UHGV virus genome: UHGV-1597594
Direction: 5' to 3' (one strand)
Source: a virus
Length of the DNA: 61,373 bases
The notes under the pieces are model-generated. The model ran no database searches. It was not told the origin of the DNA and saw nothing but the letters and a program-made list of their open reading frames with translations. This document shows positions 16,701 to 60,760 of this stretch, piece by piece (within the stretch, counting starts at the first letter, position 1; every line of letters starts with the position of its first letter). A program made the translations under genes and the position numbers.

Positions 16701-17048
16701 CTGCAAAGTCTTCAATGTCTCAGGCTGATTCAGTAAGCTCATATGCACCATTGTACGCATATTGTTGTTTGCATCTACAAGTTGTGCATACAACTGCTCA
16801 CCATTATTTAAGCCTGTCAAGACTTTCATATTTTGCTCAATGACAGCCATGCGACGTTGAATTGACGCAAAGCTTGGCACAGTAATGCTTGTTGTGCTGC
16901 CATTGTCATTTGTCAATGTTATTGTGACTGTATCTTCTGATGATGATACTGCTGCTTGCAACACATCAAGATACTGCAGACTGTTATTGTACAGCTGCTT
17001 GATTTCTGTCAGCAATTGCTGCATTGCATTTGTTGAAACTTCTGACAT
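13743..17048 (-). CDS. large (about 1100 aa) hypothetical protein, probably virion structural
   Basis: Track start 17084 is TTG; the first ATG (MSEVSTN) is at 17048 and is preceded about 20 nt upstream by the promoter-like box (tgtttgtacatattc on the coding strand). Structural role is inferred from size and neighbourhood only. Confidence 0.7.
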   Translation of the reverse strand: MSEVSTNAMQQLLTEIKQLYNNSLQYLDVLQAAVSSSEDTVTITLTNDNGSTTSITVPSFASIQRRMAVIEQNMKVLTGLNNGEQLYAQLVDANNNMRTMVHMSLLNQPETLKTLQGTIAEDNNVVALGNDMLERTTALGMHVQIDVTGQASSYLKQCQVTKYICSDAMFAALQQIVAQTGIEMSHAALLAEIDAHGWHTDDDYTLEDFTVNLRPRRATSSGSFKILKKQNANNGTIAVKLDSIVYDAIDAKVAGSLTLKVGDTLSDPTGSVLLQIVSIDKLSQTCILQRTAGLNALNVEVTDLVFVEPIVRKVVEVPLRHSEKFVLFLSPVHDAYNTVAQYSPAVLIDTATLTIRTATNELVNANSYMLSHGDVSIGAYIAALTTDMLAPSQYAIKPNRLQLSAEAFKVIQLNTHLIDNTDKSRILSLYNQKRAVQQEMSVLDSDIASVMSKLNTNNFKNDVERQKASTQYVTLTQQRAERLQTLTNIIDEMLNINGAAYDALYNPKFRVRGFLPVQDPAISRFTAAQNIVQFKVQYRYASLNGTVAKADTFDIENAAGTITTAAFSTWNEVFTPLRRKIIVDGSIQWEPINSESIDAISCNQLEIPISANEIVQFRVKAIGEAGYPNVLNESEWSNIVSIQFPESLAASAMFVTLKDELAIDKQNVALENMLENKGLIKHIADAFSENNIYYAHNAQNIASGFFTSELAKVTTYEKLLSLSNEVAQLKDIILNQGSMLRVAIVDDEGNQTEILNGSSNVLFAGTYADKFDITSADNYGKVLTRQYWLKFYNIGAENISLYPRYHGDLSQHITDKLQDFADVYDVPVVLNSDAYDSNDILAPYGTRQYMGQALYAGLKNVAGTEKLYVAAETPSSSTVETQNIDTSAQAANRKFVHKNGDDYEAIALKSTVSSDAYNLISVQHPAWIAYSANKNEQTKSALTAAFAELAKFNSVIKSKYQQILPLELTAENAPKCAFTDNDVYAVGANSRGAFLLLNPTAVNQMQVSNSTDSAAYVVKPGENNALLIPLLFQARMTDAVGSSDIDSNAQQNKLSYTKTMNFICYIGGKEFTFDIKVYADFRSTTSIIGTIPVASITSIVR

Positions 17049-17081
17049 ATGCTTAAAATGTGATGTTTGAATATGTACAAA

Positions 17082-17116
17082 CAAAAAGACTGCTACAATA
17101 ATTTGCAGCAGTCTTT
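17082..17116 (-). terminator. intrinsic terminator downstream of CDS 17135-18028
   Basis: 8-bp stem agactgct/agcagtct with A-run 17082-17086, giving a T-run after the hairpin on the minus transcript. Confidence 0.5.
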
Positions 17117-17134
17117 GATAATTGTTTGTTTATG

Positions 17135-18028
17135 CTATGTCAATGCAATGAAGACGTCACCAGACTGTTCAGCTTCAAGCTCTTTTTCGACTTGTTGTTG
17201 CATTGTTTGACCTTTTGATGCAAGCCGGTCAAAGTTAATGCGAACATTGCCGGGCAACTTGAAGTCATATGTGCCAATGATATCTGCAAGCTCTTGCATG
17301 CATTGACCTGTGCAGTATCTCAAGAAACGTCTGTCTTCATACAATGATTGCAGCGGCACTCTTACCCAACACATCAACACCAAATCAGACCCTTCATTAT
17401 CACCAAGAACGTTCAGCTTATGACTAAATCTGTTGAAGTTATACGTGATTGTTCGTTGCAAAATGCTTTCATACGTGCCAATTTCATACATTGTCACCCA
17501 CAAGTCATCTGCAATTGATGCATTTTGAGAACCTGCAGGTCCAGCGTAGTTAAATGACACGCCATTCGCTTCACTATAAAAGTTAATTGAGTTGCTGAGC
17601 AGTCGTTCAAGATAAAAGTTTGCGCGCCGCATTGACAACTTATGTTGCGATTCAAGTAGTTGAACGTCTGATACAGCCCAAATTTGTGGCGGCAATTTGA
17701 CAATTTTGTTTGCGCCATCAGTCATGTCAATATTGCGAACAACAAACCAACGCTCTTCAAGAGCAGACTCAGAATGTTCAAAAAACCATTCTGCGCAAGT
17801 CTCAATGATTTGTGGCATACGAGTCTTCGGAATTGCAAATGGCAATGCGCAGCCTCGTGTGACTTCTTGTACAAGTCGCTCAATGAATCGCAAATCTACA
17901 CTGTAGTCATATCGAGAATTGATATTTTCGACTTCAGGCTTATTGCAATCATTTGTTGTTGCGCCTTCAACTTTCCAAGAAGTTGCGCCATCATTGAATT
18001 CTGCTTGTGGTTTGCGATTGACTTTCAT
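17135..18028 (-). CDS. hypothetical protein
   Basis: ATG at 18028; 297 aa; no motif. Confidence 0.6.
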   Translation of the reverse strand: MKVNRKPQAEFNDGATSWKVEGATTNDCNKPEVENINSRYDYSVDLRFIERLVQEVTRGCALPFAIPKTRMPQIIETCAEWFFEHSESALEERWFVVRNIDMTDGANKIVKLPPQIWAVSDVQLLESQHKLSMRRANFYLERLLSNSINFYSEANGVSFNYAGPAGSQNASIADDLWVTMYEIGTYESILQRTITYNFNRFSHKLNVLGDNEGSDLVLMCWVRVPLQSLYEDRRFLRYCTGQCMQELADIIGTYDFKLPGNVRINFDRLASKGQTMQQQVEKELEAEQSGDVFIALT

Positions 18029-18033
18029 AGAGT

Positions 18034-18513
18034 TTATCTTACAACAAGTTGAATGATCGGATTATTGTACACGTCCATTTTGAATAAGTCTTCGCCAGCT
18101 GTCATTAGCAATGCATCAAGAACCGCATTGCCAATGGGTGAATTCATAAACATTGACGTGCTATTAAGTGCCAATTCAGCCAAATACGTTGAAATGTCTA
18201 CATTGTCACCAGGTCGCATTTCCTGACGTATATAATAAGGATCGTTTGGATTATCCAAGTAATCATTCCAGCCAAAACCATCGGGCTGCTTAGTATAAGC
18301 AATATCAGTAAAACCAAGCTGTGCTCTATTATCATTGTCAAGTAACTTGTACCAAACTTGGCCATCAGCAGATACCATGTAGTTTGATGGCACAGTTAAG
18401 TTGTACTTTGATTTTGCTTGTGCAGCAGTTAATACGCCGCTTTCAAATGTGAAGCCAGCTGTTGCATGCATAGCATTTTGTGCTCTGTAATGTTCTTGAG
18501 TTACATGTGACAT
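18034..18513 (-). CDS. tail-fibre-like protein, paralog A (shared N-terminus MSxVTQ(E/D)HYRxQNA)
   Basis: ATG at 18513 gives MSHVTQEHYRAQNA..., matching the N-terminus of CDS 18582-19091; the C-terminal parts diverge. The tail-fibre role is inferred from the conserved-N/variable-C pattern and the neighbourhood. Confidence 0.6.
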   Translation of the reverse strand: MSHVTQEHYRAQNAMHATAGFTFESGVLTAAQAKSKYNLTVPSNYMVSADGQVWYKLLDNDNRAQLGFTDIAYTKQPDGFGWNDYLDNPNDPYYIRQEMRPGDNVDISTYLAELALNSTSMFMNSPIGNAVLDALLMTAGEDLFKMDVYNNPIIQLVVR

Positions 18514-18514
18514 A

Positions 18515-18570
18515 TATCTGAGTTTTTGAATGATTTGCAATAATTGACTTGCAAATCATTCAAAAACTCA
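18515..18570. promoter_or_regulatory. 56-bp perfect hairpin (24-bp arms, 8-nt loop) abutting the start codon of CDS 18034-18513
   Basis: tctgagtttttgaatgatttgcaa-taattgac-ttgcaaatcattcaaaaactcaga; the arms are exact reverse complements. Confidence 0.7.
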
Positions 18571-18581
18571 GATTTGCAAGC

Positions 18582-19091
18582 TTAATATGCGCATTGTATG
18601 CGATTAACTATTTCTGTATCGCCATCGCCAAAATACACATTGTGTTTAATGTTGTTTGTTATGTCTGTCAATACAGCTGTGCCATACCAGGTAATTTCTA
18701 CGTAGCGATTTAACGCTTCGTTAAGCAATGCATCGCTAAATTCCCAATTGTAAGCATTGCTAAATCTAAATGTGCAATCTTGAGAATAGCCTGGCACCAA
18801 TGTAATGGGCGCATTTGCAACGCATTTTAATGTGTTGCCTGCGGCAGATGTAAAAACAACTTCAAGTTGTACTTGAATGTTTTGCTTTGACTTATTTGTT
18901 AAACTTTGCACATCAATGTACAAAGATGATGCATTAACTGAAATGTTGTCATCAACTTTGTTATATGTGCAATTGCCAAAGTACATATCGCCATTTATCC
19001 AGCCTTCAGTCGTAATGGCATCTTCAGGCTTTATTACAGAACCCCCCCCCGCGTTTTGCGAACGATAGTGGTCTTGAGTTACACGTGACAT
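18582..19091 (-). CDS. tail-fibre-like protein, paralog B, with in-frame G9 tract near the N-terminus
   Basis: ATG at 19091 (MSRVTQDHYRSQNAGGGSV...); the GGG codons are a run of 9 G on the coding strand. Confidence 0.65.
   Translation of the reverse strand: MSRVTQDHYRSQNAGGGSVIKPEDAITTEGWINGDMYFGNCTYNKVDDNISVNASSLYIDVQSLTNKSKQNIQVQLEVVFTSAAGNTLKCVANAPITLVPGYSQDCTFRFSNAYNWEFSDALLNEALNRYVEITWYGTAVLTDITNNIKHNVYFGDGDTEIVNRIQCAY
19042..19050 (-). repeat. homopolymeric tract, C9 on plus strand = G9 on coding strand
   Basis: accccccccc at 19041-19050, inside codons 15-17 of CDS 18582-19091. Confidence 0.9.
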
Positions 19092-19117
19092 ATGAGTCTC
19101 ATTTTTATTGTATTTGT

Positions 19118-19162
19118 TTATCTATCAACTTGTGATTATCTCTATCTATCAACTTATGATTG
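19118..19162. repeat. two 19-bp direct repeats (tatctatcaactt(g/a)tgatt) in the upstream region of the tail-fibre-like gene
   Basis: Copies at 19118-19136 and 19144-19162, in non-coding sequence between 19091 and 19194. Confidence 0.7.
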
Positions 19163-19193
19163 TCTGTCTCTTATCAAAAGCTGCGCCATTGAC

Positions 19194-19805
19194 TTACGGT
19201 GCCACAATTGGTCCACCGCCAGGCAGACTTGAGCATGTTTGCATGTACAAGTACAACAAGTCGCCAATGTTCTGCATAATGTTTGCAAACATAAGTGCAA
19301 TGCCTCGCAAATCTGCTTCGCCTTCAAATGTGTTGATAAATGCTTGCTGAGCGCATGCAAACATTACTGGCACAGTCGATGCACTTGTCATTGCTATCAC
19401 AGGTCCGCCAGGCGACAAGGGCAACACCGGTGGCGATGCTGGCACAGTTAAGTTTGTCGGAATCCATGCTGCAACTGCTGCAGCATAAGGCTTAAAGCCG
19501 TTGCCAAACTTTATTGCAATGTTCTTTGGGTCTACTTCACCTTGAAATGTTTCTATAAGTGCTTGCCTGCCTGCTTCAAATAGAGAGCGCTCAAGTGTAG
19601 CAGTTGGACCTGCAATTATTGGACCACCGACAGGCAAACCTGCGCAAGTTGCAATGTAGCTTGCTACACCTGTAGCAAACAATTGACTGAATTTGTTGGC
19701 AAACTTTGTCGCAATTTGCGGTCTATCAAGCTCACCTTGAAAAGTTGCAGTGTATGCTTGATACGCAATGGGCTGCACAGCAGCTTGCAATGTAGCACCT
19801 GGCAT
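19194..19805 (-). CDS. hypothetical protein with three ~60-aa internal repeats
   Basis: Repeats containing TFQGE(L/V)D...IA(T/I)KF(A/G)N and LP(V/G)GGPI(I/V)A; start taken at an internal Met (MPGATLQ) to avoid overlap; start uncertain. Confidence 0.5.
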   Translation of the reverse strand: MPGATLQAAVQPIAYQAYTATFQGELDRPQIATKFANKFSQLFATGVASYIATCAGLPVGGPIIAGPTATLERSLFEAGRQALIETFQGEVDPKNIAIKFGNGFKPYAAAVAAWIPTNLTVPASPPVLPLSPGGPVIAMTSASTVPVMFACAQQAFINTFEGEADLRGIALMFANIMQNIGDLLYLYMQTCSSLPGGGPIVAP

Positions 19806-19806
19806 A

Positions 19807-20091
19807 TCAATCCAACAATTGAGCAGCAGCAATTGCGCCAAATGCTGCAGATATGAATGATTGTGCAATGTATGATAAACTCCAGCAGCGTTCTATTGCA
19901 TAGAGTTTTGACAAGCCACATGCAATAATGTCAAGTGTTACTGAAAGTAACGTAACTGCAAGCAAATGTGTTCGCAATGGCACTTCAATTGTGTCGTATG
20001 TCATTAGTGTTGTTGCAAATGCAATGAATGCGATTATTACGCAGTGCAGCAGTGCAAACATCAAGCGTTCAATGAAATGTTGATTGTTCAT
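19807..20091 (-). CDS. small membrane protein
   Basis: 94 aa, largely hydrophobic (IIAFIAFATTLMTY.., LLAVTLLSVTLDIIACGL). Confidence 0.45.
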   Translation of the reverse strand: MNNQHFIERLMFALLHCVIIAFIAFATTLMTYDTIEVPLRTHLLAVTLLSVTLDIIACGLSKLYAIERCWSLSYIAQSFISAAFGAIAAAQLLD

Positions 20092-20093
20092 AT

Positions 20094-20972
20094 TTAGTCT
20101 TGGCCTTTATCAATTGTGGCAATTTTTGACAGAGTCTCAGGCAAAAAGTCTGAGTCTTTTTTGTGTGTATTATTTGATGGTTGCTGCACTTTTGCAGGAT
20201 ACGTGCCAAATACAGGTGCAAGTGGGCTTGTGTATGGGTTGCCTTGTGCTGTTGTCTGGAGCTGCTTCATGACTTCTGCAAGATTATCTACAACTTCTTT
20301 CACATAGTCAAGAACATTTTGATGCGCAGTTTTGTTGTCATCTCCAACTACACAAGGCTGTTCTGATTTATCTGTGCTGCCAAAGCTCAAATGACCATCA
20401 GCAGTCATATGAATGACGCCATTTTTGTCAGCGTCAGTAGTCATATGAATTGACTTGTCCTTGCGCAAATTGATGTCTGTGCCATTGTAGTGAATATGCC
20501 AGCCTTGTTCAGGTGTCCACCATATGCCAAACTTGCCCTCAGTACCATATCGTTCAGCGTCATCGTAGACAACAATCTTTGCTTTGGCGTTTTCATCACC
20601 AATGATGTCTTTTGTGATATCTGAGCGAGAATCAAGATGCATCCAAGTCATATTGTAGACACCTCTACTCAAATCAAGCATGACCCAGTCGCCCACAATT
20701 GGCGCATCATACATGTTCATCATGCTGCTATCTGCATAGCACCATGGCAGCTTGTTTGTAGCAATTTCATTGTCAGCAAATCGAGTAAAGCCGTCAATTT
20801 GACAACGAATGCGACATTGCAACATGTCATCATCAACATCAACAACTTCACCAATGAGCTTAACTGGCATGCCCTCTGTCAAAGACCCAATTGATGACGC
20901 AGTTATTGATGCATTGTATGCTGATATCTTTTCAAACAGCTCTTCTTGAGTAACAAGCAACATATCAGACAT
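20094..20972 (-). CDS. hypothetical protein (structural block)
   Basis: ATG at 20972; 292 aa; no motif. Confidence 0.6.
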   Translation of the reverse strand: MSDMLLVTQEELFEKISAYNASITASSIGSLTEGMPVKLIGEVVDVDDDMLQCRIRCQIDGFTRFADNEIATNKLPWCYADSSMMNMYDAPIVGDWVMLDLSRGVYNMTWMHLDSRSDITKDIIGDENAKAKIVVYDDAERYGTEGKFGIWWTPEQGWHIHYNGTDINLRKDKSIHMTTDADKNGVIHMTADGHLSFGSTDKSEQPCVVGDDNKTAHQNVLDYVKEVVDNLAEVMKQLQTTAQGNPYTSPLAPVFGTYPAKVQQPSNNTHKKDSDFLPETLSKIATIDKGQD

Positions 20973-22402: not shown

Positions 22403-22508
22403 ATTGTGTGTAGTTTGCTTTCTTAATTTTTGGATATATACACATACTCAAACAGCACAAAAAACTTCGCATCAAGTTATTGATGCGAAGTGCACTCAAT
22501 GCAATATG

Positions 22509-30735: not shown

Positions 30736-30750
30736 CATAGAACATCACAA

Positions 30751-30784
30751 AAGCAAGCAGACTGCAATTGCAATCTGCTTGCTT
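30751..30784 (-). terminator. terminator hairpin downstream of CDS 30807-31163; near-identical copy at 47033-47060
   Basis: aagcaagcagactgca-at-tgcaatctgcttgctt (16-bp arms, one mismatch); T-rich run follows on the minus transcript. Confidence 0.5.
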
Positions 30785-30806
30785 TGACACATTTGTAGCA
30801 TACAGT

Positions 30807-47032: not shown

Positions 47033-47060
47033 ACAAGCAGGCTGCAATTGCAGTCTGCTT
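47033..47060 (-). terminator. terminator hairpin downstream of CDS 47107-47652 (copy of the 30751-30784 element)
   Basis: caagcaggctgca-at-tgcagtctgcttg; followed on the minus strand by the promoter-like box and the start of the gene at 46945. Confidence 0.5.
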
Positions 47061-47106
47061 GCACTTTACTAACCCTTAAAATCAATGACACTATGTCAAT
47101 GTCATT

Positions 47107-59217: not shown

Positions 59218-59382
59218 TGTTGTAGAGATTTTTGTGTACTATATTGATATATGATAATTGTACTACAAAAATCACAAATTTGCACTGATTTGATATATAA
59301 TATGTCAATAAATTTCACATACAAAAGTCTTTTCGCTTATGAAAACTACTCAACTCTGGTTTGAACGCCAGCAGTCAATCGC

Positions 59383-59389
59383 GGGGGGG
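59383..59389 (+). repeat. G7 homopolymeric tract between an upstream ATG (59339) and the downstream ORF
   Basis: gcgggggggc at 59381-59390. Confidence 0.9.
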
Positions 59390-59463
59390 CTCTTCGTGAC
59401 ACTATTATTAGCGGTACTATCAACAAAGCAGATGGTTCACTACTTGAAGCTGCATATGCAACT

Positions 59464-60117
59464 ATGCAAGAAGTCGAATGCTATGATGCTGACACTGGTG
59501 AATTCTTAGCAGGCTCACCTATCACAGTGCAGCCAAATGGCATGCCAACATATAAGTTGACAATTCCTGCAAACAGGCTTGGTGCAGGTGCATTGTCAAT
59601 TTGTTCAGTGTATCTTGATAATGTCAGTGTAAATGACTGTCTACGTTATGGCACTGGCTCCACTTTATATTGCTATGCAGGTCAAGGTGAGACGCTTGAT
59701 AATGTCAATTTGACATGTGGTGATACACTTGCATGCTTACCCTGGATTCACGAAATTCATAGAGGCGATTCAGAGACAAATGAACAACGCATAGCAATTG
59801 TGCTTGATGGCATTGAACATTTTTGCACTGATGAAGACATTCAGCTACTTGCATCGACATTGTCACACCCATTAGAATCATTTGGAGATGACAAAGTGTT
59901 TGCAGGCAAGCCTACGTACTATGACAATTGCTTTGCTGAATGGCTAATGCTCAATGATTTTCAAGCAGGCAACATGGTCGATACGTCTGTCACTGACTGC
60001 ATTTTGCTTATTGCAAATGACCCAGTAGTTGGCAATGACATCTTGATTACTCTTGAGCACATCACATCAGCGTTCAACTTCAATATGTATGACATGACAA
60101 ACTGGAATATGCTGTAA
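59464..60117 (+). CDS. hypothetical protein; full-length form probably starts at ATG 59339 in the +1 frame across the G7 tract
   Basis: ORF-track ORF starts at an internal Met; reading from ATG 59339 with one extra G in the tract gives a stop-free, in-frame extension (MKTTQLWFERQQSIAGGALRDTIISGTINKADGSLLEAAYAT-MQEVE...). Confidence 0.6.
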   Translation: MQEVECYDADTGEFLAGSPITVQPNGMPTYKLTIPANRLGAGALSICSVYLDNVSVNDCLRYGTGSTLYCYAGQGETLDNVNLTCGDTLACLPWIHEIHRGDSETNEQRIAIVLDGIEHFCTDEDIQLLASTLSHPLESFGDDKVFAGKPTYYDNCFAEWLMLNDFQAGNMVDTSVTDCILLIANDPVVGNDILITLEHITSAFNFNMYDMTNWNML

Positions 60118-60130
60118 TGAACTGCAAATG

Positions 60131-60166
60131 CACAAAAAGACTCAGCAATATTGCTGAGTCTTTTTG
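60131..60166. terminator. bidirectional intrinsic terminator
   Basis: aaaaagactcagcaatattgctgagtcttttt: 11-bp perfect stem, 2-nt loop, flanking A5 and T5. Confidence 0.75.
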
Positions 60167-60237
60167 TGTGCACTGTGACGCGCTTAATTGATACAGTCTA
60201 AGTGTAACATAGTCTGAAATGTTTACAAATTTACTTA

Positions 60238-60702
60238 TCAAATACCAATGTATATTGCGTATTCTGATGTTTTGATATCATCAGCGTCAAATTCAATTTC
60301 ACCATAGTTTTCATCACCTTGTGTTGCTATGATATGTGTAGCAAGCTTAACTTCATCATAGTACAAATCATAGAACACTTGCGTGCCTTTGTAAATTGTG
60401 ATAGCTGTGTTATTATCATACAACACTGGCGTCACTGTTTTAACAGGACCAACTTCTTGTGGCAAGGCCCTATCAAGAAATGTCAGTCTAATTGGTGTAG
60501 TGTACCGAGTATAAATATGCACGGTGAACTGCTTTAACAGCTTTCTTTGTTGGAGGGCTTGTTGTGCCCCCCCCCCAGTTACGAGGGATTTGCATATGAA
60601 TTGAGTTTTTGAAGTGAGTTGAGTTTTGATGCAAGATGCAAAACAACTAAGATGTTGTTTTGATATGTACATATGGGCAGTCAAAATATATAAAACAAAC
60701 AA
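60238..60702 (-). CDS. hypothetical protein with G10 tract near the 5' end; N-terminal boundary unreliable
   Basis: GGG codons (VTGGGAQQ) are the 10-nt homopolymer at 60567-60576; the 42 aa upstream look non-protein-like; an ATG (atgcaaatccctcgtaactgg) just upstream of the tract is out of frame by one. Confidence 0.4.
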   Translation of the reverse strand: MFVLYILTAHMYISKQHLSCFASCIKTQLTSKTQFICKSLVTGGGAQQALQQRKLLKQFTVHIYTRYTTPIRLTFLDRALPQEVGPVKTVTPVLYDNNTAITIYKGTQVFYDLYYDEVKLATHIIATQGDENYGEIEFDADDIKTSEYAIYIGI

Positions 60703-60760
60703 TTTAATAATTTGAAAAACTCATAAGCTTTATGACATTCAAATTGAACTGGGGGGGGGG
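60567..60760. repeat. 14-bp inverted repeat with homopolymers (C10-agtt ... aact-G10) flanking a ~170-bp AT-rich segment
   Basis: ccccccccccagtt at 60567-60580 and aactgggggggggg at 60747-60760 are exact reverse complements. Confidence 0.85.

Follow-up and report, generated by a model that had tools for sequence, protein, structure and literature searches.

What is the role of a long, perfect palindrome that fills the gap between two small phage genes and ends directly in front of the second start codon? This question is raised by a stretch of 61,373 nt from the virus genome UHGV-1597594 (referred to as the window), in which the original prediction, made from the sequence alone, had noted a hairpin between two genes that are named A and B here. 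Both are encoded on the minus strand, carry a short common N-terminal peptide (the tag) and form the first and the second cassette of an exchangeable site ahead of a phage neck gene. On balance, the palindrome probably works on the mRNA, as a hairpin by which ribosomes are kept from initiating at gene B, the second cassette. The central features are:

18516..18573, minus strand: main hairpin; in the mRNA, 5' arm 18573-18549, loop 18548-18541 and 3' arm 18540-18516
18582..19091, minus strand: gene A, open reading frame (ORF) of 169 aa, cassette in first position, N-terminal tag MSRVTQDHYRSQNA
18034..18513, minus strand: gene B, ORF of 159 aa with its ATG at 18513, cassette in second position, N-terminal tag MSHVTQEHYRAQNA

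Structure of the hairpin and occlusion of the gene B leader

An inverted-repeat search of the window identified two arms of 25 nt each (18516-18540 and 18549-18573) which are 100% complementary and enclose a loop of 8 nt, giving 58 bp in total. The predicted hairpin is thus present, but the figures given for it before (18515-18570, 56 bp, arms of 24 bp) had to be corrected, with coordinates that were off by 1-3 nt. Among the inverted repeats of the 61-kb window, this palindrome is the longest. On the gene strand, it begins 8 nt past the TAA of gene A (18582-18584) and stops 2 nt short of the ATG of gene B (18513-18511), and it therefore abuts the second start codon as originally described. The minus-strand RNA with its flanks folded with -41 kcal/mol (z = -8.4), a stability not reached by any of 200 dinucleotide shuffles; this agrees with the earlier statement that a chance origin is very unlikely. 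Folded on its own, the hairpin reached -35.6 kcal/mol. Its region has a G+C content of approx. 28% and the stem is AT-rich.

The 3' arm of the hairpin is the leader of gene B and comprises its positions -27 to -3. Eighteen of the 20 nt upstream of the B ATG are paired, with a probability of being unpaired of 0.10. With a minimum free energy of -36.6 compared to a mean of -11.5, the B leader is the most extreme of the 69 window genes and the only occluded one. When the cassettes were compared by position, the mean probability of being unpaired for the nucleotides -20 to -1 was between 0.10 and 0.31 for second-position cassettes, but between 0.63 and 0.96 for first-position cassettes.

The hairpin is a single-copy element. 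No further copies of either arm were present in the window at up to 3 mismatches, and no exact match of a 23-nt arm was found in IMG/VR or in 185,579 species genomes. A dispersed palindromic repeat, a miniature inverted-repeat transposable element or another mobile element was rejected on these grounds, and also since a covariance model of the hairpin found no second copy in 138 kb. A known RNA family was rejected as well: Rfam 15 returned just sub-threshold microRNA-precursor models that matched both strands equally, which is the signature of a generic long hairpin. The plus-strand ORF at 18549-18713 is a mirror artefact of the palindrome.

Occurrence of the hairpin in related loci

For comparison, 20 related metagenomic loci of one phage species were gathered, mostly via exact-protein look-ups; further sources were two IMG/VR contigs of the phage and two short metagenome contigs of the Joint Genome Institute (JGI). 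In an alignment of six loci, the neck proteins had identities of 96-99%. The variable content lies between an upstream gene for a 203-aa protein and the neck gene, and consists of one or two interchangeable cassettes bearing the tag. Five types of cassettes, A to E, are mutually unrelated outside of the tag. They are arranged as follows:

A followed by B: window/L010, L007, L008, L009, L013, L014, L015, L019, L020 and L021 (10 loci)
B alone: L001, L016 and L022
E alone: L023
C followed by D: L002
D' followed by B': L017 and L018, which are two independent samples

The hairpin was located right before the second ATG in 13 out of 13 two-cassette loci and in none of the four single-cassette loci (L001, L016, L022, L023). 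It occurs at three types of junctions, namely A to B, D' to B' and C to D, with two unrelated hairpin sequences. In the loci compared, no hairpin was found ahead of first cassettes or behind last cassettes. The same cassette may occur with or without it: B has the hairpin when it is second and an open leader when it is first, and D has it when second (L002), while D' lacks it when first (L017). The distance from the stop codon to the base of the stem is 8 nt in the window, 9 nt in L017 and 8 nt in L002, and the distance between the stem base and the ATG is 2, 2 and 1 nt, respectively. In L002, the hairpin occupies the equivalent place with an unrelated sequence and has 14 pairs with an internal loop (-17.8 kcal/mol).

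Compensatory changes in the stem

Close relatives of the window carry single stem-weakening changes (mismatches, one bulge and one deleted A), so that 22-25 pairs with -24 to -36 kcal/mol are formed; no covariation was observed among them. The description of the hairpin as perfect thus holds for the window genome and not for most relatives, which have 1-3 imperfections.

L017 and L018 carry a homologous but more diverged spacer. It is 71% identical to that of the window, while the flanking genes are 91-95% identical on DNA level and B and B' 66%. The stem pairs of the window and L017 were aligned directly, as MAFFT and covariance-model alignments placed L017 out of register. The 25 window pairs had the following outcome in L017:

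unchanged: 17 pairs
both sides changed with pairing kept (A-T to T-A, G-C to T-A, T-A to G-C): 3 pairs
G-C changed to G-U: 2 pairs
both partners deleted: 1 pair
lost at the top of the stem: 2 pairs

A covariance model built from the close relatives recognised L017 with 47.9 bits in sense and 17.4 bits in antisense orientation, and nothing more in the 138 kb searched. The comparison establishes the structure of the element, its position, its maintenance by compensatory change and its strict tie to cassette-cassette junctions.

The tag and the cassette proteins

In a BLASTP alignment of A with B, only residues 1-14 aligned (MSRVTQDHYRSQNA and MSHVTQEHYRAQNA), with 11 of 14 residues identical; the remainder of the proteins is without similarity. 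The two genes had been called paralogous, which does not hold in view of a similarity that is confined to this 14-residue tag. The coding copies of the tag form a direct repeat, of which a pattern search found exactly two copies in the window:

19050..19091, minus strand: tag-coding direct repeat, copy 1, codons 1-14 of A
18472..18513, minus strand: tag-coding direct repeat, copy 2, codons 1-14 of B

The tag codons show the synonymous differences CAC/CAT, TAT/TAC, CGT/AGA, AAC/AAT and GCG/GCT. Given the fact that the differences between the repeats are mostly synonymous, the tag is conserved at the level of the peptide and not of the DNA. With the consensus MSxVTQDHYRSQN (13-14 residues), it heads at least five otherwise unrelated small proteins (A-E) that are exchanged at one site. 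When 1.84 billion representative proteins were scanned in full with HMMER, it was confined to approx. 7 clusters, all of these cassette types, and a word-indexed protein search with the tag profile gave almost no matches.

Neither A nor B had a match in Pfam, PHROG, NCBIfam or the sequences of the PDB, and AlphaFold2 models of A and B from 8-sequence alignments were unusable with predicted local distance difference test (pLDDT) values of 29 and 40. The designation as tail-fibre-like, which was part of the original prediction, is therefore without support. Homologs of A that are 81-90% identical occur at the same locus in other metagenomes; those of B have identities of 59-96%. Both genes are located in a structural neighbourhood, with a baseplate/hub-like gene upstream (phrog_37871) and a T4 gp13-like neck gene downstream:

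17135..18028, minus strand: gp13-like neck gene, Pfam PF26809 (Phage_T4_gp13) on identical products

Exchange and decay of cassettes

The genomes with B as their single cassette have an A-type leader ahead of B. In L016, the tag is chimeric, with A-type sequence up to nt 8 and B-type sequence from nt 21 on, and the same chimera was read in the sequence of L001. The chimeric tag and the A-type leader are explained by a deletion of A and the spacer via a crossover inside the repeated 14-codon tag. The hairpin had also been proposed as a recombination site between the paralogs. However, the breakpoints of the single-cassette relatives lie in the tag repeat and not in the hairpin.

The homology between the spacers of the window and L017 resumes right after the upstream stop codon. 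Because it extends from the stop codon onward, the spacer moves with the downstream cassette B or B' and not with the upstream A or D'. The relatives have at least three unrelated types of leaders ahead of the first cassette, which indicates that this leader is exchanged, too. The leader of the first cassette in the window contains the direct repeat AAGTTGATAGATA twice (19100-19165, minus strand, upstream of A).

Two further observations were made in single loci. The B tag of L001 (4001-4045) has an in-frame TAA at codon 7 (GAA to TAA) with the next ATG at codon 15, so B is either inactivated there or made without the tag. In L002 (4990-5050), a second copy of the initial 16 nt of the gp13-like gene (CATGAAAGTTCAACGT) follows right past the last cassette, which looks like a scar of short-homology recombination at the downstream edge of the cassette site.

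Among the ten loci with A followed by B, B is disrupted in four: it is split in L008, has an ACG start and a frameshift in L009, an ATT start in L019 and a frameshift in L021. It is intact in the other six. The reverse was found in L017 and L018, in which the first cassette is frameshifted at a G-run and B' is intact, and in L014 with a truncated A and an intact B. No locus had both cassettes broken.

Probable translational block of the second cassette

A Shine-Dalgarno (SD)-like motif precedes only one of the 69 window genes, and the 20 nt ahead of their start codons are 42% A and 11% G. The scarcity of SD motifs, the A-rich leaders and the distant protein matches to phages of Chryseobacterium, Tenacibaculum, Flavobacterium and Prevotella point to a Bacteroidota host, as judged from the sequence. 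In Bacteroidota, SD sequences are ignored by the ribosomes, and initiation is tuned via the structure of the mRNA and adenines upstream of the start (PMC6847099, PMC7797042). As leaders are open and A-rich and SD motifs are not used in this host group, a buried leader should strongly reduce de novo initiation at B.

The palindrome would thus act as RNA, being transcribed on the minus strand within a polycistronic message of structural genes. The long hairpin would form with the ribosome landing region of B (-27 to -3) as its 3' arm. The neck gene begins 5 nt past B, and transcription to it must cross the hairpin; transcription of B and of the neck gene would stay intact, and A would be the protein that is normally made, with B kept low or silent. 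The original prediction had named sequestration of the translation start among the possible functions, and this part is favoured by the comparative evidence, with 18 of 20 leader nucleotides paired and a hairpin adjacent to the ATG in three types of junctions; the repression itself and the means of its relief are inferred. B could be released, as the relatives suggest, when recombination between the tag repeats deletes A and the spacer and B moves behind the open leader of A. A second and more speculative route would be taken when no ribosome is located at the A stop codon: ten nucleotides past the stop would then pair with the top of the 5' arm, and the B leader would be freed. The decay of B in four of ten loci and a spacer that travels with the downstream cassette both fit a block of translation, and B looks to be under relaxed selection when it is located behind A.

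Several points weigh against this interpretation. The repression of B is read solely from folding energies, and the AUG itself is unpaired in the window (it is paired in L002). The stem changes in the close relatives (L007, L008/L019, L013/L014, L015, L020) are all single and disruptive, and the compensatory changes come from one diverged lineage alone (L017/L018). Moreover, template-switch mutation can homogenise the arms of a DNA palindrome without selection on RNA (quasi-palindrome mutagenesis). Single transitions led to four G-U pairs in sense and to four C-A mismatches in sense, and with this 4:4 ratio wobble pairs cannot tell which strand is functional. In L009 and L021, B is broken but the hairpin has stayed perfect, and it may consequently serve something other than B. 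Finally, a gene under permanent silencing is difficult to maintain; six of ten loci nonetheless have an intact B, and some route to its expression must exist.

Other ways of joining the two frames were rejected. A translational bypass of the T4 gene 60 type or a fusion of A and B would use the arrangement UAU-UAA ... UAU-AUG of the window, which is not conserved: the respective codon pairs are CCA ... AAU in L017 and AAC ... GAU in L002, with frame offsets of 68, 67 and 47 nt in the window, L017 and L002. The UAU match across the hairpin (18582-18587 and 18511-18516) was judged coincidental, being absent from L017 and L002. A read-through extension of A would add 26 residues and stop inside the B tag, and it is not in the frame of B. 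A start of B at the in-frame TTG at 18540, which would extend its N-terminus, is not conserved, and L017 has a stop codon in that frame.

A possible ribosome-sensing switch

A stronger form of the translational block is conceivable, although we regard it as a minor possibility. The RNA may contain a three-strand switch made of a segment 1 right behind the A stop codon, the 5' arm (segment 2) and the B leader (segment 3):

18571..18580, minus strand: segment 1, CUUGCAAAUC, nt 2-11 past the A stop, with a 10-bp pairing option to the top of the 5' arm at 18557-18548 (GAUUUGCAAG)

A ribosome terminating at the A stop codon would cover segment 1, and pairing of segments 2 and 3 would then switch B off. 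If ribosomes do not complete A, e.g. because of a frameshift in a poly-G run, segments 1 and 2 would pair first and trap the 5' arm, and the B leader would be free. It is known from established footprint geometry that a terminating ribosome covers the stretch that holds segment 1.

A mutually exclusive alternative pairing that involves the sequestering strand was found in all three versions of the hairpin (9-10 nt). Segment 1 is located at nt 2-11 in the window and at nt 3-12 or overlapping the stop codon in the others, i.e. within 12 nt past the stop. The nascent fold of segments 1 and 2 was more stable than with random upstream sequence in each case:

window: -13.9 kcal/mol, p = 0.006
L017: -18.3 kcal/mol, p = 0.002
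L002: -15.9 kcal/mol (-14.4 kcal/mol with the shorter flank used for the shuffles), p = 0.0065

The estimated barriers to refolding into the main hairpin were 12.7-15.8 kcal/mol and would mean lifetimes of minutes or longer. At stem position 19 of L017, T to G in the 5' arm is matched by A to C in the 3' arm and by A to U in segment 1. Across the loci with A followed by B, there is no variation in segment 1 or at the top of the 5' arm, while the top of the 3' arm varies. The pattern of decay described above, with broken first cassettes beside an intact B' or B (L017/L018, L014) and never both cassettes broken, is in favour of the switch as well.

On the other hand, the main hairpin of the window is far more stable than the alternative (-35.6 versus -13.9 kcal/mol). 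With this gap, B is off at equilibrium either way and the switch needs a kinetic trap. The motif TTGCAA is self-complementary and occurs in 168 copies in the genome, so a third pairing partner is easier to obtain by chance; being merely 1.6-fold enriched genome-wide, it was rejected as a special motif.

The frameshift that would operate the switch could arise in the following tract:

19042..19050, minus strand: poly-G run G9 directly past the tag, codons 14-17 of gene A

This run is one of four G/C runs of at least 6 nt in the window, and GGG is the rarest glycine codon (39 of 699). Among the relatives, the run is G9 or G6 or is interrupted by T, A or C; in L017 and L018, it is G7, one G too long and out of frame. 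From its sequence, the G9 run is a candidate slipped-strand phase-variation tract. An uninterrupted run coincided with an intact B in 4/4 versus 2/5 loci, which is not significant (Fisher p ~0.12) with loci that are non-independent. As far as the account of Sorensen et al. 2021 in the citing work goes (PMC10877375), poly-G switching of receptor-binding genes in Campylobacter phages offers a precedent with a variable G run and loss of frame in a virion-associated gene. Unlike those tracts, the G run of this locus lies right past the shared tag in the first of two cassettes and may be linked to an RNA switch. Taken together, tract and switch could provide a two-state display, i.e. a heritable, reversible and mutually exclusive choice between two virion-associated proteins without invertase or reverse transcriptase; we consider this a tentative idea with a low chance of being correct.

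The remaining long G/C runs of the window are located at 59383-59389 (G7), 60567-60576 (C10) and 60751-60760 (G10). They cluster in and beside a non-coding stretch of 1 kb (59218-60237).

Other explanations for the hairpin

As an improbable explanation, the hairpin could be an element of RNA processing or stability that is cut by host RNase III or blocks a 3' exonuclease and thereby separates the fates of the two halves of the message. RNase III usually requires about two helical turns (~20 bp or more) of near-continuous double-stranded RNA, and the stem has 25 pairs in the window and 21-24 pairs in the homologous versions. The location would be suitable, too, as the R sites of T7 and the N-leader and sib sites of lambda lie between cistrons, and the perfect hairpins beside a broken B in L009 and L021 fit a role independent of B. 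However, the L002 version with its 14 pairs and internal loop is short for RNase III. An RNase III site was among the options of the original prediction, and stem length gives a mixed picture for it, being sufficient in the window but not in L002. Processing also gives no reason for a spacing of 1-2 nt to the ATG in every version, for the absence of hairpins behind last cassettes or for a spacer that moves with B or B' rather than with A or D'. In a variant of this explanation, cleavage might activate B by removing the stem.

It is distinctly improbable that the palindrome is an element of the DNA, a by-product or facilitator of cassette exchange without a role as RNA. It could have arisen as an inverted-duplication scar of the leader at the insertion of a cassette, or it could be a replication pause site that promotes deletion between the tags. 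The site is a recombination hotspot with four array types within flanks that are 96-99% identical, and chimeric tags (L001, L016) and a duplicated gp13 5' end (L002) were found there. The 3' arm resembles ordinary first-position leaders and the 5' arm could be its inverted copy; the wobble counts show no strand bias, and template-switch repair can mimic compensatory change. Nevertheless, the tag repeat and the stop codon, instead of the palindrome, are the inferred positions of the breakpoints, and two unrelated hairpin sequences occupy an equal place with equal spacing to stop and start. The relatives keep the register to the ATG despite mismatches and bulges by which a cruciform would be weakened, and the significant third pairing partner has no rationale on DNA level.

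A factor-independent terminator or attenuator lowering transcription of B is highly improbable: the stem is very stable and lies right past a stop codon, but it is AT-rich in contrast to the GC-rich stems with T-runs of the genuine terminators of this phage, there is no T-run (U-run in the RNA) after the hairpin on either strand, a terminator scan did not call it, and the essential gp13-like gene follows 5 nt past B, too close for a promoter in between, with no copy of the phage promoter motif upstream. That the hairpin is not a canonical terminator had already been stated in the original prediction, and the scan and the composition of the stem agree with it.

Comparison with known systems

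Translational control by hairpins over initiation regions is known from the T4 genes e, soc, 49, I-TevI and segB and from mobE of Aeh1, which they silence on read-through transcripts (PMC3014915, PMC2988022). The arrangement at B is similar: in a large myovirus, too, one gene has its initiation region enclosed in a stable hairpin, and within what may be a polycistronic read-through message, only the translation of this gene would be held down while transcription continues. The T4-type hairpins hide a SD sequence, whereas there is none to hide in front of B. Their bypass is a late promoter within or beside the 5' strand, from which a shorter transcript without the inhibitory strand is made, whereas no promoter motif was found in or near this hairpin. 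Further differences are that the regulated gene is the second of two cassettes sharing a tag and that the 5' arm has a second partner beside the upstream stop codon. The B hairpin can best be regarded as a T4-type initiation-region hairpin in variant form, for which ribosome sensing would be a plausible extension.

This extension is reminiscent of the leader attenuation of ermC and cat, in which a ribosome stalled in the frame of a short leader peptide turns the gene on. Exclusive pairings are common to both, and as proposed here, the position of a ribosome on the upstream frame would decide on access to the downstream initiation region. Unlike in ermC and cat, a full-length structural gene is located upstream, the terminating ribosome would switch the second gene off, and three segments instead of four are involved.

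The tag finds a parallel in the T4 internal-protein locus with its N-terminal capsid-targeting sequence and in the tail-gene cassettes of K1-5, K1E and SP6, where unrelated exchanged genes share a short module. In these loci, the gene product is directed or attached to the virion by the module, which also serves as homology for recombination. The cassettes of the window resemble them in their exchanged bodies and shared short module; the sequence of the tag is different. To our knowledge, no hairpin abutting a start codon has been described at the T4 internal-protein or the K1-5/K1E/SP6 loci.

Intergenic stem-loops at the boundaries of insertions, deletions and replacements between close relatives are also known from T4-type phages as promoter-plus-stem-loop cassettes (PeSLs). 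A genome has approx. 50 of these dispersed elements, in which a terminator stem is joined to a sigma70-like early promoter, and recombination takes place between them (PMC2839356, PMC4122927). The hairpin at B likewise lies exactly at a cassette boundary. In contrast to PeSLs, it is present once and lacks both a promoter and a terminator tail, and exchange takes place via the repeat of the N-terminal tag. A PeSL-type regulatory cassette was therefore rejected.

Bacteroidota gut phages are abundant and hard to culture, and the diversification of their virion surface is largely obscure. The locus would be a compact way to hold spare genes, with a shared tag, interchangeable bodies and a hairpin that quiets the second copy. 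Even when read minimally, it provides a natural example, supported by comparative genomics, of translational control through RNA structure in bacteria without SD sequences. If the hairpin does sense the translation of A, translational coupling would be inverse and linked to slippage in a homopolymer, which would be a new logic, and a simple, portable part for either/or expression in Bacteroidota could be derived from it.

The phage and its transcription signals

An identical locus is present on a 108-kb scaffold of a human-gut metagenome, and the close relatives are IMG/VR contigs of ~175 kb. A blastn search against 50,697 phage records gave no match. On protein level, the nearest cultured phages are the large Bacteroidota myoviruses Chryseobacterium MA9V, Tenacibaculum pT24 and PTm1 and Flavobacterium MaF61, together with Sphingomonas phage PAU and Prevotella megaphages. 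In Sphingomonas phage PAU and Tenacibaculum phage pT24, no tagged cassettes were found beside the neck gene.

The minus strand bears 66 of the 69 long ORFs of the window. A promoter-like motif of the phage, TGCAAA-N12-GTTGTACAAT, i.e. TGCAAA-N12-GT(T/A)GTAYAAT, was derived here; it has a fixed length, is intergenic and occurs in 13 copies, all of them on the minus strand. Examples of these copies and the terminator next to the neck gene are:

59284-59257, 46996-46969, 37517-37490, 26879-26852, 13342-13315 and 4489-4462, minus strand: copies of the promoter-like motif
17085..17116, minus strand: intrinsic terminator with a 14-bp stem and a T-run, the likely end of the unit comprising A, the hairpin, B and the neck gene

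There is no copy of the motif between 26852 and 13342 and hence none in or near the spacer, and a scan for sigma70-type promoters over 17000-20200 was at chance level. Neither a terminator nor a promoter consensus was found between a terminator-like hairpin in the spacer at 22403-22508 and the terminator at 17116-17085. It may be that the hairpin and the structural genes around it belong to a single long unit, or a different type of promoter may be used. The genuine terminators of the phage have GC-rich stems and T-runs, with 20-35 nt of free leader before the next ATG. Two near-identical palindromes, CAAGCAGNCTGCAATTGCAGNCTGCTTG, at 30750-30785 and 47034-47061 are each followed by a T-run and resemble sequence-related intrinsic terminators.

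The 203-aa protein upstream of the cassettes

The protein encoded directly upstream of the cassettes (19194-19805, minus strand) has no family match. It contains three internal repeats of ~70 residues, each of which ends in a motif like P-G-G-P or PGGGPI. This triple-repeat protein could be the docking partner of the tagged proteins.

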